Source: Candidatus Bathyarchaeia archaeon
GTDB taxonomy: Archaea > Thermoproteota > Bathyarchaeia > Bathyarchaeales > Bathycorpusculaceae
DNA length: 64,000 bases
Reading direction: 5' to 3'
Assembly: GCA_050015395.1 (NCBI GenBank)
Contig: JBEKBM010000002.1
Coordinates: 64,001 to 128,000 of the forward strand
Shown: positions 3,747 to 48,826 of the stretch, piece by piece
Position numbering within the stretch: the first letter of the stretch is position 1
How the letters are laid out: each line of letters opens with the position of its first letter
The notes under the pieces: generated by a model
What the model was told of the DNA's origin: nothing
The model's database searches: none
What the model saw: the letters and a program-made list of their open reading frames with translations, nothing else
Position numbers and translations under genes: made by a program

Positions 3747-4046
3747 GCTCTGAAAGAAGCTTTCTATGTAGCCGCGTTCCTGTCCGACCATACCCTCGCA
3801 ATAGACACCAATAAGTAAAATTCTTCTAATAAAAAAGATGTTGTGTTCTATTGCAAATAATAAACAAATCAAAAATACAGAATAAAAGAGTTACTTTTAG
3901 ATAAAAATAGAACAAATTATCCTTACAACTTAAATAAGCCAATTAAGACAGTAATTAGTTGAGGAACCGTTCCTCACCGTGTTTTAAGAGATTTTTAATG
4001 CTAAAAATTTTCTTATCTGCTTCTGCCAAGGAGGGATTTCGTAGGT

Positions 4047-32628: not shown

Positions 32629-32751
32629 CTAAGTTTCTAACTGCTTAAAACATTTAGTAAAATTTCGTTGGTAGGTATTCCGCTAGGTTTCTATTTATTG
32701 TATGGTCGTAGAAACTGCTTAATGTACTTTGCAGAATAGAAAGAAACTTAG
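32629..32751 (-). repeat. 123-bp element with perfect 10-bp terminal inverted repeats (copy 1)
   Basis: CTAAGTTTCT 32629-32638 and AGAAACTTAG 32742-32751; first 69 nt on the minus strand match 47018-47086. Confidence 0.8.
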
Positions 32752-33566
32752 CTATTTGAAGAGTCTTCTGTTGGTGGTCGTGGTCGGATATTCCTCAAAA
32801 CAAGTTTTTGATAATACCAAGAAAAATGTTTAAAATCACTTTGGATTTGTTTTATTATGGCATGTTGAATTATAGCTGTGTTAGGAGCTTTATTGAAATA
32901 AGCTAATTTCTTTTCTTTGTTGTTCTCTTCTTTGTTGTAATTGTTGAAATAATCAATCGCATTATCAATTGAGATAGCATTGGCAACATTTGCATAAGTT
33001 GTCCAATAAGATATTCTTAGAAAATCATACATTGTTGCTGTTCCAAATATGAGAACCCCAAGAAATATGAAAATATAATTGCCATAAGGAATCTTGAAAA
33101 AATTTACAATCTTGATAAAATATTCATAGCTTGAAACCAAACCAAGGATTCCTACCACAATCGCAATCAGATAGCCTACATGGTTTTGGATATATGAGTG
33201 GTAGGAGTTCAATAAGCATCTTCTTGATTCTTCAAAATCTGTTTCATCAATTACTTCTTTAATCGGTTTTTCTCTCTTTGCCTTCCAAATCTTCTTTTCT
33301 TCTGAGTCTTTTCCCTCTTGTTCTTTTTTATCATTTGGGGAATCATTGTTCTTTATCACTCCAAATTTCACTAAAGCCACAAGTATTAGGTATGCAGCAA
33401 CACCAAAAAGAAGAACAACACCAATCGAAGCAAAAGATATGATAGCGTCTTTAGGGTCACCTTTCATGCCATAGAAAAATACTTCATATGCTCCTTGAAA
33501 TATTACGGTGAGAAGGACAACAATTAGGTAAACATTTCTATATTCTTTTAGAGTTATTTTTGCCAT
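32748..33566 (-). CDS. Hypothetical membrane protein (about 4 TM)
   Basis: 272-aa ORF with hydrophobic segments; ATG directly follows the conserved leader element. Confidence 0.7.
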   Translation of the reverse strand: MAKITLKEYRNVYLIVVLLTVIFQGAYEVFFYGMKGDPKDAIISFASIGVVLLFGVAAYLILVALVKFGVIKNNDSPNDKKEQEGKDSEEKKIWKAKREKPIKEVIDETDFEESRRCLLNSYHSYIQNHVGYLIAIVVGILGLVSSYEYFIKIVNFFKIPYGNYIFIFLGVLIFGTATMYDFLRISYWTTYANVANAISIDNAIDYFNNYNKEENNKEKKLAYFNKAPNTAIIQHAIIKQIQSDFKHFSWYYQKLVLRNIRPRPPTEDSSNS

Positions 33567-33605
33567 GTTTAGGTTATTTCTACGCTGTGCATTTTAAGGT
33601 TTGTC
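33567..33605 (-). promoter_or_regulatory. Conserved promoter/leader repeat, copy A
   Basis: GACAAACCTTAAAATGCACAGCGTAGAAATAACCTAAAC-ATG. Confidence 0.75.
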
Positions 33606-34061
33606 AAATTTTTCAGAAACAGCTTTTACTTTACATGGATTATGAGTATGATAAATAGTGAAAACGCAGTTTAATCGGTCTTTTTCATCACTATTATATT
33701 CAATAAGAAATTGTGACCCAATGTCGGCGTTGTCATGAGCATCAATCCATTTGCTTTCACCTATCACATTCCAGAACATCTCTTGCTTCCCATGATATTC
33801 TTTTTCACCAACTTTAAACGATAGCCCTATGTCATTTATTCTGGTGCCTCTATCACCAACATTATTTATGTGAAATTTAGCAAAAAAGAAAATCGTCTTA
33901 ATCTGAGATGTTGAGACCGTAAATCTATGGTGACAGTCTGTTACACTTACTTTTAGGTTTGGTTTTTCTTTTCTGTATGTATAAACAGAAATGATAATAG
34001 CCGAGATTCCTGTAAATGCCCCGATTAAGCCTATCCAATTGGCACTAAGGAATTCACTCAT
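33594..34061 (-). CDS. Hypothetical protein, N-terminal TM anchor plus beta-rich domain
   Basis: 155-aa ORF; WIGLIGAFTGISAIIISVY followed by KPNLKV...NVGDRG. Confidence 0.7.
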   Translation of the reverse strand: MSEFLSANWIGLIGAFTGISAIIISVYTYRKEKPNLKVSVTDCHHRFTVSTSQIKTIFFFAKFHINNVGDRGTRINDIGLSFKVGEKEYHGKQEMFWNVIGESKWIDAHDNADIGSQFLIEYNSDEKDRLNCVFTIYHTHNPCKVKAVSEKFDKP

Positions 34062-34076
34062 TTAGATACGTTCCAT

Positions 34077-34116
34077 GTTTAGGCTATTTCTACGCTATTC
34101 AGATTTAAGACTTATC
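34077..34116 (-). promoter_or_regulatory. Conserved promoter/leader repeat, copy B
   Basis: GATAAGTCTTAAATCTGAATAGCGTAGAAATAGCCTAAAC-ATG. Confidence 0.8.
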
Positions 34117-34139
34117 TTTATGAAAAAAGAGAAAAGAAA

Positions 34140-34877
34140 TTAGCTATTAATGTTTGATCTCTCGACTTTTCTCGACAAACCATACTTTTTGGTTATGGAT
34201 TGAGTAGATGCTATCAATGATAAACTACTTGAGGGAGAAACAAATACTCTTTCCACAAGAAGTTCAATATCCACAGAAACATATATTCCCTCATCTAAAG
34301 GTGTTTTGAAAACTTTACCATTTTCTACCCAGTTGGTAACAATTGCTCTAAGTTCGTTTTCGTTTTCAAACTTCTTATCTTTGCGAACAAGTCTACGAAA
34401 AAAATTATCCATAGAATTAACGTCATTATTCATGTCTCTGTACACCACTTTTCCAATAAAAATATCTCGAGAATCTTTAATGCTATCTCGTAATTTCAGA
34501 TATGTTGATTGGATAGCAATATCTTTTTTGAATACATCCCACATAACTCTAGAATCCTGATCACACATATACCAACAATTTACAAACGTATGCTGGAGTA
34601 GATCTTTATCAGTCACAGAATCTAATTTATTGATATGTTCTAAAAATTGCTGGTTTAAGTGAATGCTTTCTCCCCACTCTTTTCTGTACTTATCAGTCAG
34701 TATAATCTCAGGGTTTGTTTTTTGCCCTTCTAACTTATCACCTAATCGATCAGATCGAGCAAAATATAAAGCATGGCGATTCAATAAGTCGGCATATTTT
34801 TTATCATCAATTAATCGCCATATTTTTTGATCAATTTTATTTGGTTTCTCAAAAATATTGAATTCTTTATATGGCAA
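34140..34877 (-). CDS. Hypothetical protein, DUF2971-like
   Basis: KIWR, LYFARSD.L.D.LEG, VNCW, MW, IAIQST, GKVVY, K.K.FENENELR motifs. Confidence 0.6.
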   Translation of the reverse strand: MPYKEFNIFEKPNKIDQKIWRLIDDKKYADLLNRHALYFARSDRLGDKLEGQKTNPEIILTDKYRKEWGESIHLNQQFLEHINKLDSVTDKDLLQHTFVNCWYMCDQDSRVMWDVFKKDIAIQSTYLKLRDSIKDSRDIFIGKVVYRDMNNDVNSMDNFFRRLVRKDKKFENENELRAIVTNWVENGKVFKTPLDEGIYVSVDIELLVERVFVSPSSSLSLIASTQSITKKYGLSRKVERSNINS

Positions 34878-34902
34878 TTATCTCCCCAATAAAAAATGAA
34901 GC

Positions 34903-34922
34903 ATGCAAATTTAAAACTTATC
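34903..34922 (-). promoter_or_regulatory. Conserved promoter repeat, copy C (5' half only)
   Basis: GATAAGTTTTAAATTTGCAT, 25 nt before the TTG start. Confidence 0.55.
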
Positions 34923-35068
34923 ATCAATGAAAACTTAGCTAATAACTAAAAAAATAATGATAAAGAGGAAGGGAATGTGAAACATATTTTCTAGTCATAA
35001 TTAATACCAATGCCATTTTGGAAGGGAAAAATAAAGAATTAACTAAAGTTCAAGGAAAAAGAGACTTG

Positions 35069-35362
35069 TTAATCTTCTTCTTCAAGTTTTCTCTCTTTAA
35101 TTTTGAGTGTGTTCTCTTCTGGGCTTATTACTCTGAAAAGCTCTGAGAGCTCGTGTTTGTGCAGGAACTTTTTCAAAGTCACGCGTACGTATTTTTTGCT
35201 TAGCCCTTCGCCTTCCCCTTTCACCGTTAAGATTTTTGCGTCTGTCGCTACTTCTCCGCCTGTTTTCTCCTTAAGGAAATCCGCTAGCTTCTCGATTAAT
35301 TTAGCTTCGTCACCTTTAAGATCTGAAGTATCAACTTTCATTTCAACCATTTTCATGTTCAC
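35069..35362 (-). CDS. rpl22e: Ribosomal protein eL22 (L22e) homolog
   Basis: LADFLKEK...SKKYVRVTLKKFLHKHELSELFRVI plus acidic tail resembles eukaryotic eL22 ([26 protein letters not shown]). Confidence 0.75.
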   Translation of the reverse strand: MNMKMVEMKVDTSDLKGDEAKLIEKLADFLKEKTGGEVATDAKILTVKGEGEGLSKKYVRVTLKKFLHKHELSELFRVISPEENTLKIKERKLEEED

Positions 35363-35615
35363 CTCGATTCATGTCACGCAATTTCTTATGTTTTAGCTTA
35401 GTTTTTCACAGCTACATTATTGATTAAGTTTTCCGCTTAAACGTGTCAGTTCGCCCGTCGAGTCATTATCACTGCGTAAGCTCTGTGACTCTATTGCTCA
35501 TCATCCAAAACATTAATCGACAACAAAACTTAAGACTCTTACGCTAAAGCGCATTTATCCAAAGAAACTGTTTTTATTATTCAAGCCAATACTTAGTTGT
35601 GGAGTTGTCTAAGGT

Positions 35616-36137
35616 ATGGATCTTTTGGAAATTATCAAGAATAGAAGAAGCATACGAGTATTCAAAAAACAAGACGTGCCCCAAGACATTATTGAAAAGC
35701 TTCTTGAAGCCGCACGGTGGGCGCCTTCTGCTGGAAACGTTCAACCGTGGGCTTTTGTAGTTGCAATCTCGCAGAAAATGAAGCAGAACCTTTCCATGGC
35801 GGCTTTTGGGCAAAAAGACCTTGAAGAAGCATCAGTCGTTTTTGTGGTTTGCGCTGATGAAAAGCTCGCTGAACAAAGCTATGGTGTACGTGGTAAATCA
35901 CTGTATTGCCTTCAGGACACTGCGGCTGCAATTCAAAATATCTTGTTAACCGCTCACTCGCTTGGTTTAGGTTCATGCTGGATTGGAGCATTCAAAGAGG
36001 ATGAAATAAGGCAAGTCATTAAGGCCCCTAAAGAAATGCGGCCAGTAGCTTTGATTCCAGTAGGATATCCAAACGAGGCACCAGCAGCCAGAAGTCGAAG
36101 ACCAGTAGGCGAAATAATGCATAAAGAAACCTTTTGA
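35616..36137 (+). CDS. Nitroreductase family protein
   Basis: RRSIRVF, APSAGNVQPW, NILLTAHSLGLGSCWIG, VGYP. Confidence 0.95.
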   Translation: MDLLEIIKNRRSIRVFKKQDVPQDIIEKLLEAARWAPSAGNVQPWAFVVAISQKMKQNLSMAAFGQKDLEEASVVFVVCADEKLAEQSYGVRGKSLYCLQDTAAAIQNILLTAHSLGLGSCWIGAFKEDEIRQVIKAPKEMRPVALIPVGYPNEAPAARSRRPVGEIMHKETF

Positions 36138-36843
36138 CGTTTACCAAAGTATTTTTTAGGCTCAAAGCGGTTTCTTTCGTAAAGAAATGCGCTCTACACT
36201 TAGTCGCCCTAAACGGGATTAAACCTGCGTTCTACGGCGTTAATCCCATTGCTACAGTGACGTATAACCATGAACTTGAGTGACTAGTAACAATGAACAT
36301 GCGTGACGTAAAAGAACAGCTAAAAACAAGCCCTATTCAACAAAATAACCATGAAACAGACGCTGAACAGATCAAAAAATAATGTCGCAAGCCTACCCTA
36401 CCTTAATTTGCTAAACGATGAGTTAATAGTTTTAGGTTCTTTAGATTAGACTTAGAAAATCAGCCTTAAGAAATAGTCTATGCTCACCAATCATCCAGGA
36501 ATTCAAACTGCCAAGTTACAGGCATCATTTCTATGCTTTCTCTTTAAGATTAAAGAAGCCTGCTTCAACCTTGGGGTTAGCCCTCAACTTCTTGTAAACA
36601 TTTTCATTGACCAATGGTATTGTACAAACCCGATTTATCCGCGAACCAAATTTTGGCTTCTCCTCAGGCTTGAATAATAAAAGTTGCTTTAACAAACACA
36701 ATAACGTTTAAAAGAGACTTTATCATGTCTAATCGGTTTTATTAGAGGCAAGAGACACATGTGCAAACAGGTGGGTACCAGTTCAGCGAACATGCGCTCA
36801 ACTTGCCCTGTTAAAAATCATAATAACGAAAGGAGGAAAAGAA

Positions 36844-36969
36844 ATGTTATCAAGAGATTGTGACGGATGCTCCCAAATGAAATCGTGCAGTAGACGTTAC
36901 TTCATCGTCGAAAAAGGCAATTGTGTCTTCTGCCCCGACGGAACAGCCCATTTAGTAGATGGACTATAA
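36844..36969 (+). CDS. Small Cys-rich protein (41 aa), not in the ORF track
   Basis: Strong SD AAGGAGG; MLSRDCDGCSQMKSCSRRYFIVEKGNCVFCPDGTAHLVDGL*; T-rich terminator follows. Confidence 0.7.
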   Translation: MLSRDCDGCSQMKSCSRRYFIVEKGNCVFCPDGTAHLVDGL

Positions 36970-37226
36970 AATCAAGCGAAAAAATCATTTTAAAGTTTTT
37001 TCATTTGCTCCATTTTTTATTTTCTTACTGATTTTTCACGGTAAATAACCAAAAAATGAATTACAAAATGAATTCAACAATAAAAAAGATTAATCATTTC
37101 ATAAAATTTTAATTCGCATAATATTATAATTTTTTGTTTGAGAAAGTGCGTTAACGCTGTTCTTGAGAGACACATGTTAGCGACGAAAGAATTAGGTAGC
37201 TCGGTGGTCATTTAACGCGTAGGAGC

Positions 37227-37463
37227 TTAACAGAGGGTGCAAATCATCAAATAATCCTTGCCGTGATCTATTCTTAATTTATGAGTTTTAACGTAATCTT
37301 CCAGTTGCTTGAGCAATGATTCATTGGCTAAGGTTGCATCCGTTAGAACTACATAGCCTTCAGTTTCAGTATCATATATCCCCCACTCAGTAAACCCTTT
37401 GAATACTTTAGGGTGACAGGCGGGAAATTTCTTTGAAAATTCTATTGCTTCAGCAAAATCCAT
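37227..37463 (-). CDS. Hypothetical protein
   Basis: 78-aa ORF with ATG start and protein-like composition. Confidence 0.55.
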   Translation of the reverse strand: MDFAEAIEFSKKFPACHPKVFKGFTEWGIYDTETEGYVVLTDATLANESLLKQLEDYVKTHKLRIDHGKDYLMICTLC

Positions 37464-37793
37464 GCAAACAAACCCGATTCACATAACAATTTGCTGCATG
37501 AAATTATTAAAAACTTGTGCGTAAAACAGGCTACAACTTTGTTTAAAATTGTCAGATCGCACCGTTGTGAATGGCAAAACTTCAGCGGATCAGGGCATCC
37601 CCCGCATATATCACGCCATACATAACCCGTATTATCAGCTCCAGAAGCAATCCAGCTCGAAACAGAAACGTTTAGATCTCTAAGGAATTTGAACCCAACG
37701 GTTTCAAGCCGCATTTATTGCAATTGGAATTTGACCTTGAGCGCTTTTGAACGGAATCGTAATCAACCATAGCTCACTTCTGTAAGTGAGTTA

Positions 37794-38048
37794 TCATGTT
37801 CCCTGTTTGCTTTTGCGTCTTCTATCAATCAAACGGAAGGCTGCGTTAGCGCCGACAAAAATTACCAATAAAACCAAGAGAAATCCAAGGAAACTGAAGA
37901 TTCTATCCAGCAAGAGAAACAAGTTCAACAATAGCACAACAGTGGCGATAATGAAGATTGCAACCTTCTCTTTAACGATAATCCTAGGAGACATAGATTG
38001 TTGGTCACGATTAAACGCATCACGTGCTCTTACTAATCTCTTTCCCAT
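37794..38048 (-). CDS. Small membrane protein (2 TM)
   Basis: 84-aa ORF, two hydrophobic helices, purine-rich SD-like sequence upstream. Confidence 0.5.
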   Translation of the reverse strand: MGKRLVRARDAFNRDQQSMSPRIIVKEKVAIFIIATVVLLLNLFLLLDRIFSFLGFLLVLLVIFVGANAAFRLIDRRRKSKQGT

Positions 38049-38416
38049 CCTTTTTGAAATTCTTCCTCTCCCCTATTCCAAAACAAGCCTGAAGCGCCTG
38101 ATTAAGGCAAAATTAAGCTTACGCCTCTAAGTTGGAAGAAGTCGAATGAATTATTCTCGCTAATCTTTGAATCGAGCATAGGCAAGGCGTCCTGTCAGCG
38201 CTTTCACTTGGTTTGGTTCTTCGTTTGGCCGCTTCAATATAGACCTTCTAAAGCTTGGCAGCATGACTTCTTTATTAGGCTCTAGGCATTCTCAGATTGA
38301 AAATGTTTAACATTAACAGTATCTGAGTCGATACCAGAACTATGTCGAGGCCGCTCATTCCTTTTTCAGAAATTCTAAAAACGAGTTTTGTCAAAGTTTT
38401 GAAAAAAGAAAAGAGG

Positions 38417-39910
38417 TTATGTAGTTGTGTGTTCTGCGGCATAAAGGATTTCGGGTTTTTCTATTTCTAATCCTAACCCTTCTGCGACGCGGCGTCCATA
38501 TTCTGCATCAGCTTTGGCGAAGAGTTTTGTTTGTCGAATTTGGATTTCTTTGTTAGCGTTTTGGAGGTGGGAAACAATGTTGCTGATGAGGTGGTTTCGA
38601 TCCTGCTCTGTCAAAGCCTTTCGGTACAGTTCTCCGGGTTGAATGAAGTCATCGTTTGGATAGGTATATCGGTGTCTCCCTGCGACCCCAGCGACTTCAA
38701 ACGTTGGTTCAGCAGCTTGCATGTCTGGTTCGGGACCATTAAAACTGTTAGGGTAATAGTTGGCTGCGCCCTTACCGTTTGAGTCAAACCGCATAAAGCC
38801 GTCCCGCTGGTAATTCTTCATTTCTACGCCTTTTGGCCTGTTAACTGGAAGCAGATGGTAGTTGGGTCCGAGGCGGTAGCGGTGAGCGTCGTAATATGCG
38901 AATAAGCGTCCCTGCAGCATTTTGTCTGGAGAAGCAGCGATACCTGGTACAAAGTTTGCTGGGGAAAACGCGGCTTGTTCTACTTCCGCGAAATAGTTCT
39001 CAGGGTTGCGGTTCAGTACCATTCGACCAACTTCCATTGGTGGATAGTCACTGTGGGGCCACACTTTCGTGACGTCGAAAATGTCGAAACGATATGTTTC
39101 TGCATCTTCCGGAGGCATTACCTGCACCTGAAGCGTCCAAGACGGGTACTCGCCTTTTTGGATTGCGTTGTGAAGATCGCGAGTCGCGTGGTCGGGGTCA
39201 ACTCCTTTCATGTGCTCAGCCTCTTCTCGAGTTAAGTTCTGGATGCCTTGGTCTGTTTTGAAGTGGTATTTAACCCAGAAATAATCGCCTGCTTCGTTGT
39301 ACCATTTGAATGTGTGGCTGCCGTAGCCGTTCATGTTGCGGAAAGACTTTGGTGTTCCCCTGTCAGAAAAAAGGATAGTTACCTGATGCAGCGATTCAGG
39401 TGTCAAAGAGAGGAAATCCCAAAACATGTTGGCGTCTTTGAGGTTAGTTTCTGGATTGCGTTTCTGCGTGTGAATGAAGTCTGGAAATTTTAGGGGATCA
39501 CGGATGAAGAAGACAGGCGTGTTGTTACCTACGAGATCGTAATTGCCTTCTTTGGTATAAAACTTGATTGCGAACCCGCGAGGATCACGTTCAGCATCTG
39601 CTGACCCCTTCTCGCCTCCCACCGTGGAGAATCTGGCAAAAACCTCGGTGCGCATACCTACTTCAGAAAGGAAATTTGCCTTCGTATACCTTGTTACATC
39701 ATTTGTAACTTCAAAGTATCCGCCTGCGCCAGCACCTTTGGCGTGAACAATACGTTCCGGTATCCGCTCTCGGTTAAAATGCGCCAACTTTTCGATTAGA
39801 TGAACATCCTGCAGCAAAACTGGACCACGTGCACCGACTGTAACAGAATTCTGGTCGTCGTCTACTTTTCTTCCAAAATCCGTTGTGAAATTGTTCTTTT
39901 TTTCGGTCAT
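38417..39910 (-). CDS. katA: Monofunctional heme catalase (small subunit)
   Basis: [15 protein letters not shown] active-site motif, [30 protein letters not shown] heme ligand. Confidence 0.97.
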
Positions 39911-40346
39911 AAAAAGCCTCACTACATTGAATGGACGCGAATTTATTTAAGGATTAGCTTATCACCCTGCTGGTTAGGAAACCAGTGTCTTTGACCAGAA
40001 TTCTTTTTCGATTAAGGGTGCAAGACAAAAAAGGGGTATGAGTAATAAAAATTTGAACGAGAACTGAAAGATGAAGCTAAATTTGTTTAGAGCGTATTAT
40101 AATATTAATGGCGGGCCCGCTGGGATTTGAACCCACGATCTCCGGCTATGGCGGAACCATCAGCCAGAAAATTGTCCCATTAAAGAAACTACTAGAAAAC
40201 AGGTTGGGTAAGGGCTCCCAGTGTCCAAAGTGAGTCGGAACCGGATTTGGACCTGCGCCTTTCATCCTTCATTTCGTCAAGATTCTATGCGTTCAACAGC
40301 CAAGCCATGCCTGTGTTTCTAACTCGGTTTTTGACCAGCAAGTTTA

Positions 40347-40380
40347 TATGAATAATAATTCATATGAAATATAATTCATA
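40347..40380 (+). promoter_or_regulatory. Tandem ArsR/SmtB-type operators overlapping the TATA region
   Basis: TATGAA-N6-TTCATA twice (40347-40364 and 40363-40380) just upstream of the ArsR gene. Confidence 0.7.
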
Positions 40381-40399
40381 CGATTGTTAAGGGCAAGAT

Positions 40400-40729
40400 G
40401 TGAACGAAATGAAAAAAGGGCTAACAAAAATCTGCTATCGATTCTTCACCAACCTAGCAAACCCCACAAGACTCGCCGCCCTCGAACAGCTAATGGAGAA
40501 ACCCATGAGTGTAAACGAACTTGCAACCGCGCTCGGACAAGAACAAAGCATGATTTCACACAACCTTAAACCATTACTCCAATGCAACCTCATCGCCATC
40601 AAACGGCAAGGCAAAAAACACATCTACACCATCAACGAAGAAACCATGCTCCCCATCTTTGGAGCCATCGAAAACCACGCTCAAAAATTCTGTCCCACAG
40701 GCGGAAAATGCCTAAAAGGAGAAAACTAA
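40400..40729 (+). CDS. ArsR/SmtB-family transcriptional regulator
   Basis: FFTNLANPTRLAAL, SVNELA, QSMISHNLKPL, RQGK..IY; C-terminal Cys pair. Confidence 0.92.
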   Translation: MNEMKKGLTKICYRFFTNLANPTRLAALEQLMEKPMSVNELATALGQEQSMISHNLKPLLQCNLIAIKRQGKKHIYTINEETMLPIFGAIENHAQKFCPTGGKCLKGEN

Positions 40730-40730
40730 C

Positions 40731-41384
40731 ATGATAAAAAGAAAAATCGTAAACATAAATGAAAACCTCTGCAACGGATGCGGCAACTGCATCCCCAAAT
40801 GTGCAGAAGGCGCCCTCCAAATAGTAAACGGCAAGGCAAAAATAATCAAAGAGGTCTACTGCGACGGTTTAGGCGCCTGTTTGGGACAATGCCCTCAAGG
40901 AGCAATAACCATAATAGAACGTGCAGCTGAACCCTTCGATGAAAACGAAGTGCACGAACACCTCAAGAACAAAACAAACTCAATGTTGCCCACAAGCATC
41001 CAAGCCAACTCGACATCGCAAAAGCCCCAGTGGCCTGTAAAACTAAACCTTGTCCCAACGAAGGCTCCGTTCTTCGAAAATGCCAACCTGCTACTTGCCG
41101 CTGACTGCGCCCCTATTGCACTCAAAAACTTCCACGACACACTGATGTCTGGGAAACGAGTCGTCATAGGTTGCCCAAAATTCGACGATGCCCGAGCATA
41201 CGCCCAAAAACTAACCGAAATCCTCAAACAAAATAACATCGCAACCGTGACCGTTGCCCATATGGAAGTGCCCTGCTGTACTGGCTTAAAATGGGCAGTA
41301 AACAAGGCGCTTGAATTATCAGGCAAGCAAATTCCAGTTAAAGAGTATGAGATAAAAATTGGAGGCGAAATAGTTGAGCTCTAA
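40731..41384 (+). CDS. 4Fe-4S dicluster protein with Cys-rich C-terminal domain
   Basis: CNGCGNCIPKC, CDGLGACLGQCP; QWPVKL, AADC, GCPKFD, MEVPCC. Confidence 0.88.
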   Translation: MIKRKIVNINENLCNGCGNCIPKCAEGALQIVNGKAKIIKEVYCDGLGACLGQCPQGAITIIERAAEPFDENEVHEHLKNKTNSMLPTSIQANSTSQKPQWPVKLNLVPTKAPFFENANLLLAADCAPIALKNFHDTLMSGKRVVIGCPKFDDARAYAQKLTEILKQNNIATVTVAHMEVPCCTGLKWAVNKALELSGKQIPVKEYEIKIGGEIVEL

Positions 41385-41628
41385 AGATAAACCCGTGGAA
41401 AAGAACCCTCAGACATGCCCTGGACTGCGGGACCTGCTGCAGCCTAAACCAGCCTACATTAAATGTCATGTTTGCGGCGGCGACCTAGAAATTTGGAGTG
41501 ATGAAGACAAAACAGTTTGTCCAGAATGCGGAGCCGAATGGAAACGCCCCGACAAGACAGCCGCATGCCTAGAATACTGCCAGTACGCCGACAAATGCCG
41601 AGGCATCATCGAATCCCGAAAAACCTAA
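41374..41628 (+). CDS. Small Cys-rich Zn-ribbon/Fe-S protein
   Basis: CPG, CHVCG..LEIWSDE...CPECG, CLEYCQYADKC. Confidence 0.75.
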   Translation: MSSKDKPVEKNPQTCPGLRDLLQPKPAYIKCHVCGGDLEIWSDEDKTVCPECGAEWKRPDKTAACLEYCQYADKCRGIIESRKT

Positions 41629-41631
41629 AAT

Positions 41632-42123
41632 GTGGAGATGAGTCTTTTGGTAAAAGTTTTCGTCGTTTATGACACGAAGTATGGCAACACAAAACTTGCT
41701 GGGGAGAACATCGTGGAGGGAATAAGAGAAGTTGAGGGTATTGAAATCTCCATTGGCTACGTCAAGGAAATCGACATTGGAAAAGTGGCTGATTATGACG
41801 CAATAGTGTTAGGCGCGCCAAATCACATGGGTAGATCTTCCAGAACTATGAAGAAGTTTGTTGATAGGTTGGCTGAACTTGATCTGAAAGCAAAGAACGT
41901 GGCTGTTTTCGGCACTTATTCGGGAAGGGTAAGAACTGTGGACAGAGCAGTGAAAAAACTAGAAAAAATGGCGGAAAAGAAGTTGCCTAACCTAAAACTA
42001 ATTTCACCAAGTCTATCAATAAGAGTGAATGGGATACCTGGTCCTTTGGTAGAAGGAGAACTGCCTAAATGCAAAGACTTCGGCAGAAGAATAGCAAATC
42101 ATCTAAAGCAGCATATTCTTTAG
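41632..42123 (+). CDS. Flavodoxin-domain protein
   Basis: VYDTKYGNT, YDAIVLGAP, AVFGTY. Confidence 0.88.
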   Translation: MEMSLLVKVFVVYDTKYGNTKLAGENIVEGIREVEGIEISIGYVKEIDIGKVADYDAIVLGAPNHMGRSSRTMKKFVDRLAELDLKAKNVAVFGTYSGRVRTVDRAVKKLEKMAEKKLPNLKLISPSLSIRVNGIPGPLVEGELPKCKDFGRRIANHLKQHIL

Positions 42124-42141
42124 AAAAAGGGATAGTTACAA

Positions 42142-42510
42142 TTGAGCAAGCAGCATCCGCGCATAACGAGAGAGAAAAAAACTATTGACAAGATGGTTCA
42201 CATATACTGCAGGGGTCACCATGAGACCAAAGGGAATGAGCTGTGTCCTGAATGCACCGAGTTTTTGTCGTACGCTTTCATGCGATTGGACAAGTGTCCT
42301 TTTCAAGAAGAGAAATCTACCTGCGGCAAATGTTTGGTGCACTGTTATCAGCCTCAAATGAAGGAGAAAGTGAAGAAGGTCATGCGGTATTCGGGTCCGC
42401 GGATGCTTTTGCGCAGTCCTGGTTTGGCGCTGCATCACGCGTTTGATGGACGAAAGAAGCCTCAAACACTTGAAGAATTCAGGAAAAAAAAGGCTCAAGT
42501 TCCAACCTAA
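42142..42510 (+). CDS. YgbA / nitrous oxide-stimulated promoter family protein
   Basis: REKKTI..MV.IYC, LCPEC, RLDKCPF.EEK.TC..C.VHCY, VMRYSGPRMLL. Confidence 0.88.
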   Translation: MSKQHPRITREKKTIDKMVHIYCRGHHETKGNELCPECTEFLSYAFMRLDKCPFQEEKSTCGKCLVHCYQPQMKEKVKKVMRYSGPRMLLRSPGLALHHAFDGRKKPQTLEEFRKKKAQVPT

Positions 42511-43008
42511 AGGCGCCCGCCTCGCCCCGATATTATCTGTTGAAGGATGTAATTAAATAAAAGTAAGCGAAAGCGAATATTTCCGCCAAAAGGCAAGTGC
42601 ACCAAAAATTTTGTGTATATATTTAGCTCTTGGCTTTTGTCTTAGGACATTTGTGTGTGCTCAAGCTACCCTCCCGATCTACTAGATGCTTCTAATATGC
42701 TTCAAATATGATTCAACATAGTTCAACATAGGCTCAATGTCCCGCACTTTCAACATGAATTAATGCTTTTTCAACATAGAAAAGCTGTTTTTTAATGTAG
42801 AAAAAAAGCACTAAAGAAGAAAAAACAAGAGCTAAATAAACGCCTCAAAAAATAACGCCAGTCCCTTCCACAAAAACCTTAAGTCCCTAGGAATTAACAG
42901 AATCTTTTCAAAAATTAACTCTAATTCTGTTAAATAAACCTGATCAGATTCGAGTCTGAAGTTGTTTGGGGCTCTATGGGTTCCAGTCCTTCGGTCCAAA
43001 AGGGAGAG

Positions 43009-43105
43009 CGGGCCCGGTGGGATTTGAACCCACGATCTCCGGCTATCTTCCGCTTTAAGAAGCGTCCGAAGGCCGACACCTTAATCCGTGCTAGGCTACG
43101 AGCCC
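43009..43105 (-). tRNA. tRNA-Arg(TCG) with a 21-nt intron at 37/38 (about 43045-43065)
   Basis: GGGCTCG acceptor stem, anticodon arm TCGGC-CT-TCG-G[intron]A-GCCGG, T arm GTGGG-TTCAAAT-CCCAC. Confidence 0.92.
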
Positions 43106-43196
43106 ACCTTTGACAACTCAATAATGCAGTAGCATTAAAGATTTACGACAATTCTTATAAACCAACATAATATTAAACTTGTGTCACCCTAAGCGC

Positions 43197-43274
43197 GGGC
43201 CGGTAGCTCAGCACGGCTGGAGCGTTCGACTGATAATCGAAAGGTCGCCGGTTCAAATCCGGCTCGGCCCACCA
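43197..43274 (+). tRNA. tRNA-Ile(GAT), CCA encoded
   Basis: GGGCCGG...TTCGA-CT-GAT-AA-TCGAA...GCCGG-TTCAAAT-CCGGC-TCGGCCC-A-CCA. Confidence 0.96.
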
Positions 43275-43318
43275 ATTAATCCGCACAAAAGGGTTATGGA
43301 ATCTTAGCCTGAAAAAAT

Positions 43319-44329
43319 ATGACTCAGCTCTCTCCCGAAACAATTTGGAACTTAAACGAAAAAGAACTCTTAAGCTTACTGGAATCAGGCTTCTTTACGC
43401 CCAAGCCCAAAGAAATCCGCTTTTACGCTCCAAGCTTCACCTACTACAAAACAAAATATTACTGCTCATCCCCAAATAGTTTCCCAACCATTTCCGTCAC
43501 TGGTACATCTTGCGCGTTGAATTGCAAACATTGTGGGGGCAAAGTGCTTGAAACCATGCGTCCAGTGCTCTCGCCTAAGGAACTGTTTGAGTTATGCACC
43601 AAGCTGAAACAGGACGGCGCTCAAGGTTGCCTCGTTAGCGGCGGATGTTTACCCGATGGTTCTGTGCCTCTTAACCAGTTCGTGCCTGCGCTTAGGAGAA
43701 TTAAGCGGGAGCTCGGCTTAACAGTTTTTGTTCATACAGGCATAATAAACCTTGAAACTGCCGTCTCGCTCATGGACGCTGAAGTTGATGCAGCATTAAT
43801 CGATGTTATTGGTTCAAAAGAAACGATAAAGAAAACCTACAACCTGAACGTAACCCCTGAAGATTATGCGGACTCATTGAAGGCTTTGGACAAATCAGGA
43901 TTAAATTTTGTGCCTCACGTTATCGTTGGGTTAAATGAGGGCAAATTAGACGGTGAACTAGAAGCGCTCCAAATGATAAGCAGAGTTAAGCCTTCTGCCT
44001 TAGTAATAATAGCGTTCATGCCAATACATGGAACAGCCATGGAGAAAGCGCCGCCGCCCAAACCAGTTGACATAGCCAAAGTCGCATCGGTGGCACGGTT
44101 GATGTTTCCAGAAACTCCGTTGATTTTGGGTTGCATGAGACCCAAAGGTGCAATACGCAGCGAAACAGACGTTTTAGCGTTGAAGGCTGGGGTGGATGCA
44201 GTTGCGTTTCCCAGTGAAGATGCCGTAAAATACGCGGAAAGCAAAGGGTGCACGATTTCTTTTTCTTCTTATTGTTGCGCTCAAATGTACATGGATGCTG
44301 CTGGAAAATTAAAAAGTAATCGACTTTAG
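43319..44329 (+). CDS. Radical SAM protein (biotin synthase-related archaeal family)
   Basis: CALNCKHC, LVSGG, VHTG, VPHVIVGL, LGCMRP. Confidence 0.88.
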   Translation: MTQLSPETIWNLNEKELLSLLESGFFTPKPKEIRFYAPSFTYYKTKYYCSSPNSFPTISVTGTSCALNCKHCGGKVLETMRPVLSPKELFELCTKLKQDGAQGCLVSGGCLPDGSVPLNQFVPALRRIKRELGLTVFVHTGIINLETAVSLMDAEVDAALIDVIGSKETIKKTYNLNVTPEDYADSLKALDKSGLNFVPHVIVGLNEGKLDGELEALQMISRVKPSALVIIAFMPIHGTAMEKAPPPKPVDIAKVASVARLMFPETPLILGCMRPKGAIRSETDVLALKAGVDAVAFPSEDAVKYAESKGCTISFSSYCCAQMYMDAAGKLKSNRL

Positions 44330-44943
44330 CTTGATTTTAACATTTTGTAGCCCAGTATAATGGTCCATGCTGAAACAATAAGTCCCGACACGAATTCTGG
44401 AATAGCCACATTTGGAACATAGTTAAATGCAAACAATAGTATCCAAGGCAGTGCTGCGGTAATACCAGTTGAAACCGTGAAAATTGCCATTCGCCCCTGA
44501 TGAGCAAGCAAAAAAGCGCAGGTTATAATGAACATTGATATGGGCATTAGCGTGAAGAATGCTACTGAAACTGCATAGTGCGTCCCAGAATAATGCTCGT
44601 TAAAAACGCCAATAGCGATAAGCGCTATCGTTGCTGCTGCAAAGACTGCGGCTCCAATTTTGCCAACCCAAGTTTTTCCAAGGCAGGCAAACAAGCCAAA
44701 TACTGCAAAGTTTAAGGCTAAAAGCCCGCTGACGCATAGCCCGAAATTGAAGAGTAATCCAGTTATGCCTGCTATTACGCCTAAATCGCTTAAGGCATTG
44801 CTTGTCCAGCTGAAGGAGGGGTAGGATGCGATGGCTATCAAGATGCAGGGAAACGCAAGTATGGGTGCAAATATTCCTGTGGCGGCTCCGAATCTTTGTT
44901 TTCCAGTGTTTCTATATTCAGGCAACCCTTGATTCCTCAGCAA
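44326..44943 (-). CDS. DUF998-like membrane protein
   Basis: FSWTSNALSDLG, LFN, IGVFNE...H, AIPE; 5-6 TM. Confidence 0.75.
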   Translation of the reverse strand: MLRNQGLPEYRNTGKQRFGAATGIFAPILAFPCILIAIASYPSFSWTSNALSDLGVIAGITGLLFNFGLCVSGLLALNFAVFGLFACLGKTWVGKIGAAVFAAATIALIAIGVFNEHYSGTHYAVSVAFFTLMPISMFIITCAFLLAHQGRMAIFTVSTGITAALPWILLFAFNYVPNVAIPEFVSGLIVSAWTIILGYKMLKSS

Positions 44944-45039
44944 CTTAAATGGCGATAACTTGCTTTAAGAATTTGCGTCCTCAGGAACAAGCCGCCTCAA
45001 CGTCTGCGGTAAACGAGCAAAGAAGCAAAGTCTGCTGGC

Positions 45040-45079
45040 AAAAATTCTTAAATCTGAATAGCGTAGAAATAGATTAGCC
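45040..45079 (+). promoter_or_regulatory. Conserved promoter/leader repeat, copy D
   Basis: 27 nt (TCTTAAATCTGAATAGCGTAGAAATAG) identical to copy B; ATG at 45080. Confidence 0.75.
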
Positions 45080-45133
45080 ATGTTGATTTTTTGCCCATTT
45101 CGCGTGGATGCTTACCTGCTCGTCAGTGTGATT

Positions 45134-45358
45134 CTATCTCTTCAAGTGTGTGGCCTTCCATTTTTCTTGAAGCTTTTCGGCAAGATTACCATTTTCAAGA
45201 ATGAAGGCTCCACGGTAGCCGCAGTTTTTGCACTGCCATAACGACCAGAGTTGAGGCATGCCCTGAGCCCAGAACACATCGAGTGAACCGCATTTCGGAC
45301 AGAACTTAACTGGAAATTTGCTTTTCTTATTTTGTCTCGTTGATGTATCAGTCAACAA
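45134..45358 (-). CDS. Small zinc-ribbon protein
   Basis: FCPKCGS...WQCKNCGYRG. Confidence 0.75.
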   Translation of the reverse strand: MLTDTSTRQNKKSKFPVKFCPKCGSLDVFWAQGMPQLWSLWQCKNCGYRGAFILENGNLAEKLQEKWKATHLKR

Positions 45359-45698
45359 GCATCACTACATCCATTAATGTTTTAATATCTTTTTATTTGT
45401 TAGCTTGAGCGTATTAATTAATTTTTTATTCTCTCTCTTACCTAAGGCTCAAGGTTAAATCAGTGGTTCCTCAGAAATCTTATGTAGTAAAATCAGTATA
45501 GATTCATTGTTAAATCATGTATATTCTTCAAAAAATCCTTCGAGAGTCTGCCTTTCATCTTCCACTTTATCGATTCTTTCAGATCAGTATAGTGAAAGTA
45601 GAACATCCAAAGTAGTTAGTTCTCGTTAGCGTGCGCCACCGAGTAAAGGCTGATAGTTTTTTAATAGCTAAAACGTATAGCTTTCATGAAGTGAAAGA

Positions 45699-45863
45699 TT
45701 GCGAAAAAAGTCCGAAGCATTTGCGATAATCTGTATAATTTTCTTCTTAGTTTTTGGTATATCCATTCTATGGCTCAATAATAATTTATTGACATGGTCA
45801 TCAGGAGTTCTAGCATCTGCTACGGGGCTTCTTTCCACTTACTTTAACAAAAAAGGTTCTTAA
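45699..45863 (+). CDS. Small 2-TM membrane protein (54 aa), not in the ORF track
   Basis: TTG-RKKSEAFAIICIIFFLVFGISILWLNNNLLTWSSGVLASATGLLSTYFNKKGS*. Confidence 0.5.
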   Translation: MRKKSEAFAIICIIFFLVFGISILWLNNNLLTWSSGVLASATGLLSTYFNKKGS

Positions 45864-45921
45864 GAAGATTTATAATTAAACTCTGGGATAAAGAAGGATG
45901 GAAAACTCGGCAAAATCTTGA

Positions 45922-46158
45922 TTGGAGGAGAATAAAATGGTAGAAGTTGACAACAGTAAATCTTTCATGAAAAAAAATGAAAAAACTATTTCATGGATAG
46001 CTATTATTATTGGAGTGGTTTCATTGTTAGTATATGGTCTAATTGGAATAATAGCTATTATCTTAGGCTATTGGATTTTCAAACAAAAAACTTACAAAAC
46101 AAACGGTGAAATTGCAATAGTTCTTGGAATTGCAGGAATTGTATTATCTCTGATATGA
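45922..46158 (+). CDS. Small membrane protein
   Basis: Hydrophobic helices (GIIAIILG...AIVLGI); SD GGAGGAG favours ATG 45938. Confidence 0.65.
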   Translation: MEENKMVEVDNSKSFMKKNEKTISWIAIIIGVVSLLVYGLIGIIAIILGYWIFKQKTYKTNGEIAIVLGIAGIVLSLI

Positions 46159-46362
46159 GGAATGTTAAATCATAACGTGCCAAACCCAGTTAAAAAATTA
46201 TTGAACTTTTCCAAACGTGAGGTAGTTGGAACCTAAACGGATTAAGCGTTTCTTTTTATGCGAATATTTTAGAACCCGTTCTTTCAGAATGGTCGCTTAA
46301 TAATTAAAATACCGAAAAACCTAAAACAAATCCAAGTTAATGCTATGTGAGGAAAAGGGAAA

Positions 46363-46554
46363 ATGGGATACCCTGTATGGACACACACTTCAGACAGATA
46401 CTATGCACAAATGATGCATGAAGGCGAAGAAAACAAGCTGTCGTCAGAGAATAGCGAGCTAAGAAAAGAAAATGAAGCACTCAAAGCAAGAAACAAAGAG
46501 CTCGAAGATGAAAACAAAGACCTGAAAAAATACATAGACTCTTTGAAATGCTGA
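46363..46554 (+). CDS. Small coiled-coil protein
   Basis: Heptads ENNKLSS/ENSELRK/ENEALKA/RNKELED/ENKDLKK. Confidence 0.6.
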   Translation: MGYPVWTHTSDRYYAQMMHEGEENKLSSENSELRKENEALKARNKELEDENKDLKKYIDSLKC

Positions 46555-46629
46555 TGAGAAATACTTGAAAAGACAGCAACGAGCTAGAGAACTCGGAATT
46601 TGAATATTAAGATACTAATTTTTCATAAA

Positions 46630-46668
46630 GATAAATCTTAAATCTGCATAACGTAGAAATAGCCTAAC
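46630..46668 (+). promoter_or_regulatory. Conserved promoter/leader repeat, copy E
   Basis: GATAAATCTTAAATCTGCATAACGTAGAAATAGCCTAAC-ATG. Confidence 0.8.
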
Positions 46669-46956
46669 ATGACAAAAAGATTTACAGCTATCATCCTCAT
46701 TGCCAATGTCATAATGGGTTTGCTTCTTTATCTTTCCAGTCAATTGGTGCTCTCAGAACTCAATGGTGCGACGCTAAGCGGATATAGTATTACCTCAATT
46801 GGCATAACGCCAACACAGGTTGGTCAAGTTATTGTTCCGATTGCGATGTCAATGGCTAACTTCCCGTTCTATGTCTTTGTCCTCTTTTTGATAGTAAATG
46901 CTTGCTTCATAATAAAACTGCTAATAAGCAAAGAAACAAAACAGAACCCTTCTTAA
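46669..46956 (+). CDS. Small 2-TM membrane protein
   Basis: 95-aa ORF starting at the ATG of repeat copy E. Confidence 0.7.
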   Translation: MTKRFTAIILIANVIMGLLLYLSSQLVLSELNGATLSGYSITSIGITPTQVGQVIVPIAMSMANFPFYVFVLFLIVNACFIIKLLISKETKQNPS

Positions 46957-47017
46957 ACCCACATAATGACATTTTGAGCTATTACAGCTAAGAGGACATC
47001 ATTCATTCTTTTATTCC

Positions 47018-47141
47018 CTAAGTTTCTTTCTATTCTGCAAACTACATTAAACGGTTACTACAACCATTCAGGGGTTAGAAACTTCGATATTTACAAAGTA
47101 CATTAAGGCGCTATAATGGTCTCGGTAAGCTAGAAACTTGG
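47018..47141 (+). repeat. 124-bp element with terminal inverted repeats (copy 2)
   Basis: CTAAGTTTCT 47018-47027 and AGAAACTTGG 47132-47141; internal AGAAACTTCG. Confidence 0.8.
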
Positions 47142-47144
47142 AGA

Positions 47145-47183
47145 GATAAGTCTTAAATCTACATAGCATAGATACAGTTTATT
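47145..47183 (+). promoter_or_regulatory. Conserved promoter/leader repeat, copy F
   Basis: GATAAGTCTTAAATCTACATAGCATAGATACAGTTTATT-ATG. Confidence 0.75.
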
Positions 47184-47876
47184 ATGGGCGAAAAAGAAAA
47201 AGGATTCAATCCCACTTTTGAGAATGGTGGTTATTGGGAGTACTACAAAGATTTAGAACGACAATTTGAAGGCTTCTTAGAGTACGTTCCTTACTTAGAA
47301 GGAAATGAAAAAACGTATTCTTTTAGATTGGCTAATATTTTGCTCTCTATTGGAAGTCACGTGGATTCTGCTTTTAAGGAAATGTCGGGATATCCTGATT
47401 TTTTGGAAAGAGAAAGTTGTAAAGAGATTTTGAGAAGAGCAAATGACAAAGAAGGAATCATAATAAGTGGTGTTCGTGCCTTCGATGAAATATACGGGTT
47501 ATCCTCAAAAGAAGTAACTTTCAAATGTCTCCCCGAAAGGATGCAGATTACTCCTTTCAAAAGGGTTAAACCTGAATGGTGGGATTGCTATAATGACGTA
47601 AAGCATGACATCAGCAATAATCTTTCAAAGGCAACTCTGAATGCTGTAAGAGATGCCCTCGCTGGAGCTTTCTTACTGAATGTTGTTCATATACCCTCTG
47701 CTTTGAGATTATATAATTATGGTGTCCTTCAAACAAGGATGACTTACCAAGGGAGTGTAGGAATATACGGTGATATAGGAACATCAATTTCAGTAATAAG
47801 AAACTCCATAATGAAAAAGGAAAAAATCACTGGGGATGTTGAGACTTCTATTTTCAAATATGATTATTACCAGTGA
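47184..47876 (+). CDS. Hypothetical protein (YW..Y..LE / WW..YN..KH motifs; possibly HEPN-like)
   Basis: 230-aa ORF; YWEYYKDLE, TYSFRLANILLSIG, PEWWDCYNDVKH, ALAGAFLL. Confidence 0.6.
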   Translation: MGEKEKGFNPTFENGGYWEYYKDLERQFEGFLEYVPYLEGNEKTYSFRLANILLSIGSHVDSAFKEMSGYPDFLERESCKEILRRANDKEGIIISGVRAFDEIYGLSSKEVTFKCLPERMQITPFKRVKPEWWDCYNDVKHDISNNLSKATLNAVRDALAGAFLLNVVHIPSALRLYNYGVLQTRMTYQGSVGIYGDIGTSISVIRNSIMKKEKITGDVETSIFKYDYYQ

Positions 47877-47957
47877 AAAATCTCAGTTTAAATGTTCTTG
47901 TTCTATCAAGTACCTTGAAAAGGTTACCATACATTAGAATCTATAGGTTTTCACAAA

Positions 47958-47983
47958 GACAAGTCTTAAATCTTCATAGCATG
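47958..47983 (+). promoter_or_regulatory. Conserved promoter repeat, copy G
   Basis: GACAAGTCTTAAATCTTCATAGCATG. Confidence 0.7.
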
Positions 47984-48004
47984 AAAGTGGAATTGAGGGA
48001 GAAA

Positions 48005-48589
48005 ATGTCTTGGAAAGGCTGTATTGATAAAGTTAACGAAGCAATGTGCGAATTGATGAGATACGATGTGGAATTCATTGATGATAAAGGCTTTTCGGAA
48101 TTTCTTGACCACTTAAAAGGACTTAAGGGGACTCGGTTTAGCGACCGCTACAATTCAGACTTTAGAAACTTGGATATAACTGGCTATTTTTCTGTGGGAA
48201 TAAGCGACCTTCTATGCGACCGTTCAGAAAAATGCCGAGCTAATATCAGGCTAATTTCGCCTACGTTTGGGGATGCAACCAAGAAGCCAGATTATAATAA
48301 CTTGACAGCGCTCAGAAAGATGCAAGATGCTGGTATTGAAATCAAAGTAAACGATATGCTTCATGCAAGACTTTTTGTTGGTTACAACCAAGAAGTATCC
48401 CTAAGTAATGATATTTTGTTATTAGGCTCATTTGATTTCAATAGAGAAGGTTTAAGCGGAGAGAAGAGAAACGCAGGAATCATAACTCGGAATCCAGACT
48501 TAGTAAAGTCTGCAAGAGAGTTCTTCGAAGGAATGTGGACAGACAGCCATTACACAAAATCGCTAAATGAAAAGTACCCACTCAAATAA
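48005..48589 (+). CDS. Phospholipase D-like (PLD/Nuc) domain protein with variant HKD motif
   Basis: ITGYFS, IRLISP, GIEIKV..MLHARLFV...LLGSFDFNREGL..RNAGI...FFEGMW; start placed at ATG 48005 after promoter copy G and SD GAGGGA. Confidence 0.7.
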   Translation: MSWKGCIDKVNEAMCELMRYDVEFIDDKGFSEFLDHLKGLKGTRFSDRYNSDFRNLDITGYFSVGISDLLCDRSEKCRANIRLISPTFGDATKKPDYNNLTALRKMQDAGIEIKVNDMLHARLFVGYNQEVSLSNDILLLGSFDFNREGLSGEKRNAGIITRNPDLVKSAREFFEGMWTDSHYTKSLNEKYPLK

Positions 48590-48826
48590 AACCTAATGGA
48601 ATCTTCACTTTTTTAGTGTTAAATCACCAAGTTTCTTAGTTAAATAAAATTTCTATTACTAATTAGAGCATAGACCTTAAGCAAGAAAAAACTATTAAGT
48701 TAGCTGTCATAGTAAAGACGTTGACCTTAAAATGATTGGGTTAAGAGTAAATTACAATATTGCAAGTATTGGCACTCTTAAATTCCTAATCATTGTTAGG
48801 CTATGAAGAGTTAGGCTGGGAATAAT

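Follow-up and report, generated by a model that had tools for sequence, protein, structure and literature searches.

A near-invariant 33-nt block, GATAAGTCTTAAATCTGCATAGCGTAGAAATAG, running from GATAAG to AAATAG, stands at the head of many unrelated accessory genes in a clade of peat-dwelling Bathyarchaeia. We describe it from a 64,000-nt stretch of a Candidatus Bathyarchaeia archaeon genome (contig JBEKBM010000002.1, positions 64,001 to 128,000; hereafter the window, numbered from its first letter), where seven copies, five full and two half, lie in two islets, all at the positions claimed for them in a preliminary description that had been made from the letters alone. The block has the geometry of an archaeal core promoter, is limited to one sub-clade of its genus, precedes highly diverse cargo, is under purifying selection as is that cargo, and forms the joint between sequences that are otherwise mosaic. 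We put at roughly even odds (probability about 0.5) the reading that it is a clade-specific standard promoter which doubles as the homology at which accessory units recombine. The source genome is referred to below as G000, while other G numbers denote the genomes of relatives.

The limits of the block were determined from two alignments, the first with 109 sites from the source genome and from fetched loci of relatives, and the second with 57 sites on named metagenome-assembled genomes (MAGs) that were picked by an exact 23-mer alone. In both alignments conservation begins abruptly at GATAAG, 6 nt ahead of the TATA box (TCTTAAAT), and ends with ATAG, 26 nt past the first T, with background levels outside these 33 nt; in the 57-site set the values are 0.54-1.00 across GATAAG (-6 to -1) and 0.56-0.82 across ATAG (+23 to +26). 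The block is therefore laid out as a transcription factor B recognition element (BRE; GATAAG), the TATA box and a fixed 19-nt spacer, reaching down to about -4 of the predicted start site. A conserved module of ~40 bp, continuing to the ATG, had been proposed, and while the conserved unit is real it spans only 33 nt, with the CCTAAAC-ATG tail lying outside and being kept only among leaderless copies. The two halves of the block are coupled, since all 13 genome matches to a 13-mer of the spacer (at most 1 mismatch) carry the TATA half at a fixed distance, and 17 of the 26 exact TCTTAAATCT sites in the genome bear the spacer. Variants recur across genomes at +11 (C/A), +13 (T/C/A) and +17 (G/A/T). 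Copies reduced to the 5' half occur in the window (F and G), on contig C17 and at loci L126 and L083, and there is one 3'-half-only copy, in L129; this asymmetry fits a 5' half that suffices as promoter and a spacer that is read by an extra factor.

Starts of the first open reading frame (ORF) peak at profile positions 45-49 (24/95) and 53-61 (25/95), and at 14 of the 57 sites selected by the 23-mer the first ATG lies 33-34 nt past the first T of the block, placing the TTAAAT hexamer 31-32 nt or 37-45 nt ahead of the ATG. TATA-like hexamers before 1156 long ORFs of the genome peak at -31 and at -49 to -40, which indicates that the block has the geometry of the organism's ordinary leaderless and short-leader promoters. 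About a quarter of the units are leaderless and about a quarter have a short leader with a Shine-Dalgarno (SD) motif. Likewise, when set beside the consensus forms of the archaeal BRE and TATA box, the block has a purine-rich BRE directly 5' of an A/T-rich TATA box, with a fixed distance from TATA to start. By contrast, the promoter of the tyrosyl-tRNA synthetase (TyrRS) gene in 21 species keeps a TATA-like element, and its spacer varies between subgroups. A separate subfamily of blocks is followed by a leader that holds two near-palindromes, TTAGTCAAGAAACTTTGAC, with the gene start ~150 nt downstream (G000 contig C21 at ~29300, which is L009 at ~7300; L051 at ~4300; L180; L187; and other loci).

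In the window a 29-nt core of the block (at most 3 mismatches) has three matches compared with 0 in 100 dinucleotide shuffles, while the 13-nt 5' half alone is not above chance there, with 8 matches against a mean of 4.3. The module had been described from two islets, yet across the 2.59-Mb genome an nhmmer profile built from the five full copies picks up 20 sites at E<0.01, or 23 at E<1, spread over 10 contigs and often in twos or threes. It had not been seen before housekeeping genes in the window, and this is borne out, except for one weak copy before a NAD-kinase gene on contig C23. Across the genus, a 23-mer with at most 3 mismatches is present in 55 of 101 genomes, in up to 35 copies each and at more than 400 sites overall, with 0 for the reversed pattern, and the block was found in 0 of 12 genomes from other families of the order. 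In a 185,579-species collection the exact 23-mer turns up in 58 stretches, 57 of them on MAGs labelled Bathyarchaeia or Bathyarchaeota; the sole match elsewhere (L137) is on a contig labelled Candidatus Acidoferrum, which is probably mis-binned.

As a measure of kinship we used the DNA identity of the TyrRS flank to that of the source genome, tabulated for 92 genomes, with the 9 genomes without a listed TyrRS piece, G000 among them, left out. The motif is present in 48 of the 55 genomes with a flank identity of at least 77% and in 3 of the 37 below it (Spearman 0.79); the block is a vertically kept trait of one sub-clade, decaying at the edge of the clade. G001, G056 and G074 fall inside the clade yet lack the motif. 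We also considered the BRE/TATA half as a generic promoter of the genus and rejected this, as in five motif-less relatives it occurs 5-10 times versus 1-5 times for a reversed control, and is thus near the control level. None of 30 half-sites in the motif-less genomes has the conserved spacer, except for one decayed relic in G001.

A total of 113 non-redundant sites were assembled, and at 95 of these an ORF of at least 35 amino acids (aa) starts within 200 nt. The 95 ORFs fall into 78 families, including 66 singletons, in line with the earlier claim that the module is fused to many unrelated and poorly conserved genes. More than half of the cargo consists of small membrane or secreted proteins, with a predicted transmembrane (TM) helix or hydrophobic segment in 52/95 by a Kyte-Doolittle rule, and a median length of ~80 aa. 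Ratios of nonsynonymous to synonymous substitution (dN/dS) of 0.06-0.66 in nine pairs show that the cargo ORFs are real genes under purifying selection. Most source-genome cargo lacks a Pfam family, the exceptions being DUF6915, Metallophos, UPF0489 and a PLD-like domain. Tandem co-oriented arrays, already noted in the window, reach 11 co-oriented units in 4 kb (L051), and among the neighbours of arrays in relatives are restriction-modification genes, HEPN/nucleotidyltransferase pairs and, within 1 kb at 2 of 20 loci, a tyrosine recombinase. An N-terminal TM helix with a coiled-coil stalk (MNKKIIAIS..NSKIASLN..) recurs in different cargo proteins, joined to unrelated C-terminal domains (L005:4267-5787, on contig C7 of G000; L129 and L130, of G031; L051 at ~3685-4266), so that recombination also takes place inside coding regions.

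Re-assortment of sequences around the block was examined with 155 unique sites, comparing 80 nt downstream with 93 nt upstream. Downstream sequence is shared by 42 pairs, in 13 groups, of which 5 also share the upstream sequence and 37 do not; conversely, 57 pairs share upstream sequence, with the downstream shared in 5 and unshared in 52. The flanks therefore re-assort independently and the block is a mosaic joint. When like units are compared across genomes, homology sets in no more than a few bases from the block's 5' edge. For example, G100 and G111 share a 110-aa unit at 94% identity, which extends from ATAAGTC across the ORF as far as the end of the following block, the DNA beyond both ends being unrelated, and the 95-aa unit of the window is 93% identical to that of G080 from the block to ~15 nt past the stop. 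In three unit pairs at 93-95% identity the immediately upstream DNA is wholly unrelated.

Gene content also varies between species at the same loci, as had been anticipated for such a system. Upstream of TyrRS, nearly all of the 21 species differ from one another, and in five species a block-headed unit lies directly upstream of the gene, with four cargo families represented. Likewise, the gap between HdrA and a nitroreductase gene is about 330-390 nt in G080 and G004, with a small ORF and no block, and contains three block-headed genes in G000 and other block-headed genes in G031; this comparison yielded no clean insertion junction. The LigT/AAA_17 gap is empty in G004, and in four other genomes it ranges from 970 nt (G000) through 1.8 kb (G080) and 5.4 kb (G031) to 7.4 kb (G016). 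A 15-nt direct repeat flanking the latter gap was considered as a target duplication and rejected, since it is a duplicated resident promoter that is also present in G016.

Selection on the block was assessed at orthologues of the 230-aa window protein, here termed fam12. Between G108 and G111 the blocks are identical at 32 of 33 positions despite saturated synonymous sites (dS 1.35), so the block is kept by selection and its likeness does not reflect recent origin. In the orthologue of G010, a genome at the edge of the clade, the TATA half and the spacing are kept and the spacer is lost, and that genome has two weak motif matches only. A site kept at orthologous fam12 genes across species is a feature of regulons, and the block is probably also an operator. 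A simple regulon had been named as an outcome that would speak against cassettes; regulon control stands as a possible function that co-exists with exchange. As a complete explanation, in which the block is a promoter with the operator of one factor, genes come and go by ordinary island dynamics and recombination has no role, we regard it as rather unlikely. It accounts well for a block that coincides exactly with a core-promoter footprint, for its retention at orthologues, for tolerated variants that recur across genomes at three positions, for the survival of the 5' half alone in several copies when 3'-only copies are rare, and for the clade-wide, vertical distribution. However, it leaves unexplained why the same 33 nt stand before more than 70 unrelated and mostly species-specific families, why homology starts at the block edge in the three pairs with unrelated upstream DNA, and why the flanks re-assort independently.

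Several candidates for what might read the spacer were tried, and none gained support. A specialised TFB is not indicated, as the number of TFB paralogues is unrelated to the motif (2 genes in the source genome; 3, 5 and 4 in motif-less G001, G056 and G034, respectively; 3 each in motif-bearing G003 and G013). An HTH_20/S-layer-like protein encoded beside the C21 array is found in 96 of 101 genomes, with the motif or without it, and RNA-guided targeting of the spacer was set aside because no spacer 13-mer (at most 1 mismatch) occurs outside block copies.

In the reading that we prefer, a standard promoter that is also a site of recombination, the block would be a standardised core promoter driving single compact transcription units, and these would encode a fast-turnover accessory pool, in which small membrane and secreted proteins stand together with Zn-ribbon proteins and some defence-like enzymes. 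TBP and TFB would read the 5' half and, most likely, a lineage-specific DNA-binding factor would read the spacer, which sits where archaeal repressors block polymerase recruitment, so that the flexible gene pool could be co-controlled. The near-identical copies would serve as joints for the exchange of units between loci and genomes, and the likely route would be homologous or homology-facilitated recombination between copies, without a dedicated integrase. Exchange had earlier been attributed either to a recombinase acting in trans or to recombination between modules, and it is the latter that fits better. We offer only tentatively, as a less probable extension, that the block is both promoter and recombination anchor of an integrase-free cassette exchange network across a whole clade within the Bathyarchaeia, in which DNA that carries a block is captured at a resident block and expressed at once under common control, perhaps making the network a nursery of new small membrane proteins.

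A number of observations weigh against recombination at a standard promoter. The 3' boundaries of shared units are irregular, one lying ~15 nt past a stop and one at the next block, which leaves the second crossover unexplained for solitary units, and 33 nt is short for homologous recombination. The sharp 5' edge of homology could, in older pairs, come partly from loss of unconstrained upstream DNA. Islet 2 is nearly unchanged in 24 peat/wetland metagenome runs from 2017-2025 (0.96-1.00 of sampled words), and turnover is therefore seen between species and not within this population. Promoter activity and the transcription start site are deduced from sequence, 18 of the 113 copies lack an ORF of at least 35 aa within 200 nt, and no cognate factor was found among the candidates checked, namely TFB counts and one neighbouring HTH protein. 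Contigs assembled from four DNA runs do break at module copies, and in several cases the end of a block is joined to a region past the cargo (such as 46658>47020, 46658>48636 and 32622<>46625); the short sides of these joints are 20-37 nt at 90% likeness, and as they may come from other module copies or from relatives we did not use them as evidence of inversion or excision.

An integron-like system had been proposed at the outset, in which a recombinase encoded elsewhere would recognise the block or a 3' module and insert or excise cassettes. Arrays of up to 11 co-oriented units, the sharp edges of the block, a weak dyad in its spacer (CTGC-N5-GTAG, read from the consensus), the tyrosine recombinases close to arrays at two loci and five recombinase-like ORFs elsewhere in the source genome are all consistent with such a system, which we nevertheless judge to be improbable. 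None of the 23 source-genome copies has a recombinase within 30 kb; the absence of an integrase from the window holds among the 60 ORFs scanned, and none was found among 68 ORFs around the other source-genome copies. Half copies break at differing positions, with no single crossover point, and each unit has its own promoter. The cassettes were also said to end in an inverted-repeat element, which is probably the 3' module GTTTCTTTCTATTCTGCAAAGTACATTAAACGGTTA that we find after some units. This element does recur, but only in a minority, at 4 sites compared with 23 blocks in the source genome, and at 7 sites in fetched loci. No conserved structured 3' site was detected: the predicted fold of the inter-unit element is no better than that of shuffled sequence (z -0.2), an Rfam search for structured RNA over 32000-49500 found no family in the islets and just two scoring tRNAs, and no attC-like structure was found, although the search did not include a dedicated attC finder. 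Taken in the opposite orientation, the 3' module at both its window sites resembles a decayed, internally deleted block (TTTAAT..TTTGCAGAATAGAAAG), possibly a convergent promoter or a relic.

Promoter reuse, or the putative mobile promoter, in prokaryotes was reportedly described by Matus-Garcia, Nijveen and van Passel in 2012. Applied here, a MITE-like element (miniature inverted-repeat transposable element) carrying the promoter would insert ahead of resident genes, a scheme that agrees with the putative mobile promoter concept (PMC3575422). A subfamily in which the likeness extends further upstream, with TACATTCAAGGGTTAGGAA present at fixed offsets in 12 of 113 sites and in 0 on the opposite strand, and the 57 site pairs with shared upstream sequence would suit it as well. 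We think it highly improbable all the same, because a repeat search found no terminal inverted repeats or target duplications around the copies, the flanks are at background past the 33 nt, and block and cargo travel together in 13 site groups. Furthermore, no cargo orthologue without a block was found at the same locus, the blockless distant homologues of fam12 being in other contexts.

In a further alternative the block belongs to a viral or plasmid promoter family, the units being remnants or morons of integrated elements and the block being read by the element's own regulator. Among 2.9 million viral contigs we found three stretches, on three related, tailed-virus-like IMG/VR contigs (L089-L091) that represent one genome, each with a single block; this precedes a 245-aa multi-TM protein between tail-like genes, in a moron-like arrangement. 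On contig C7 one copy has a terminase gene 1 kb away, and the cargo includes small Zn-finger proteins, a type which we take to be typical of the archaeal mobilome. Such an origin nonetheless seems very remote, given three single-copy stretches in so large a set, copies scattered as islets of 1-3 genes between housekeeping genes, and a vertical, clade-wide pattern.

The features of the two islets are listed in Table 1.

Table 1. Block copies, cargo genes and 3' elements in the window (profile E-values are from the nhmmer search).
Feature	Position	Strand	Description
Copy A	33574..33605	-	Diverged TATA half, 1 base shorter; ATG of 272-aa gene at 33566; profile E 1.4e-6
Copy B	34084..34116	-	Full block; 4-codon mini-ORF 34076-34062, then 155-aa gene from 34061; E 5.3e-11
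Copy F	34903..34922	-	5' half only (BRE/TATA + TTGCAT), ahead of 245-aa gene; missed by profile at E<1
Copy C	45040..45072	+	Full block; points into 3' end of minus-strand Zn-ribbon ORF
Copy D	46630..46662	+	Full block, leaderless ATG at 46669; E 6.7e-10
Copy E	47145..47177	+	Full block, diverged 3' end, ATG at 47184; E 1.5e-8
Copy G	47958..47982	+	5' part of block; SD-like GAGGGAG, ATG at 48006; E 0.0026
Cargo, 272 aa	32748..33566	-	Four predicted TM helices, no family above cut-off
Cargo, 155 aa	33594..34061	-	One predicted TM helix, no family
Cargo, 245 aa	34140..34877	-	PADLOC candidate defence family PDC-S31 (5.5e-11); phrog_34615 (9.4e-35), a PHROG of unknown function
Cargo, 95 aa	46669..46956	+	Two TM helices; unit also in G105, G080 and named-MAG loci L138, L168 and L172, in other contexts; dN/dS 0.06-0.35
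Cargo, 230 aa (fam12)	47184..47876	+	No Pfam family; paralogue on contig C8; in 7/101 genomes
Cargo, PLD-like	48006..48589	+	PLDc_2 6.6e-7 on 238-aa reading from 47873; start at 48006 inferred from promoter geometry
3' module GTTTCTTTCTATTCTGCAAAGTACATTAAGCAGTT	32712..32747	-	Directly past stop of 272-aa gene
3' module (47022-47057) and conserved inter-unit spacer	47022..47144	+	TACATT..GGTTAG sub-repeats, ~120 nt, abuts copy E; further copies in G080 (L053, L057) and on contig C8
Inverted partial copy of sequence preceding copy E	48611..48636	+	Right end of islet 2, 77% complementary

An ATG had been noted after five of the copies; this needs qualification for copy B, where it opens the 4-codon ORF ahead of the 155-aa gene. 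Downstream of copy C there is only a 53-aa ORF, overlapping the minus-strand Zn-ribbon ORF at 45134-45358, and this copy is probably without a gene of its own; its product may be an antisense transcript toward the Zn-ribbon ORF rather than an mRNA. The label HEPN-like that was given to the 230-aa protein finds no support, as no Pfam, PADLOC or PHROG family matches it and Atlas gives only unnamed bacterial clusters.

Other features of the window were observed alongside the islets. Two intergenic repeats, at 31945-32014 (~70 nt) and 36249-36379 (~130 nt), are dispersed in dozens of copies per genome at 75-93% identity in five close relatives and are unrelated to the promoter block. Upstream of the TyrRS promoter, at 48662-48790, a conserved non-coding stretch of ~165 nt is shared by G031, G108 and G048, is missing from most other species and has no RNA family match. 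On the minus strand, 43008-43105, beside tRNA-Ile, is called by ARAGORN as a tRNA with a 4-base anticodon loop (Rfam tRNA 51 bits) and is probably an intron-bearing tRNA, and 35444-35508, between islet 1 and the nitroreductase gene, has weak matches to C/D-box small RNAs (sR5 and sR2; 21 bits, under the gathering score).

To our knowledge, little is understood of how archaea gain, express and control their large pool of lineage-specific 'dark' genes, and integrons are uncommon among them. We found no account of the block, or of a shared promoter of accessory genes in Bathyarchaeia, in a literature search that left subscription journals outside. One standard promoter over more than 70 unrelated families would make it possible to find the flexible genes of this clade by a simple rule, and copies of the block offer a practical means of counting units in metagenomes and of looking for co-expression among them. 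It would also put forward a global regulator of foreign genes as a candidate that can be tested, and offer a natural 'plug-and-play' signal for expression in uncultivated Bathyarchaeia.

Among known systems, the operators of archaeal repressors (MDR1, Phr and TrmB-type regulons) overlap or follow the TATA box, and the block resembles them in being a conserved site between TATA and start that precedes several units, with a 5' half able to work alone. However, known archaeal repressor regulons control functionally related, conserved genes through degenerate sites, whereas the genes behind the block are unrelated ORFans, and its BRE, TATA box and spacer are kept together as one near-invariant unit. 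Integrons, in the portion of Ghaly et al. 2022 (PMC9668308) on which this comparison draws, are defined by IntI and structured attC sites, with promoterless cassettes that are expressed from Pc. The arrays described here are like integron arrays as treated in that portion, archaeal ones and attC clusters included, in having co-oriented single-gene units of unrelated accessory functions with content that varies between relatives, and differ from them in that the repeat is at the 5' end and not the 3' end, each unit has its own promoter, and neither a linked integrase nor an attC-like structure was found. Putative mobile promoters, which share 80% identity or higher across 50 nt or more at -150 to -50 and mostly occur in pairs (PMC3575422), likewise place highly similar upstream sequence ahead of non-homologous genes, both inside one genome and across genomes, with a mechanism of spread that is unknown. 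Unlike these, the block covers 33 nt at about -40 to -5 of the ATG and falls short of their identity and length threshold; it is instead a complete archaeal core promoter, present in hundreds of copies in more than 50 species, and accompanied by evidence that it acts as a joint.

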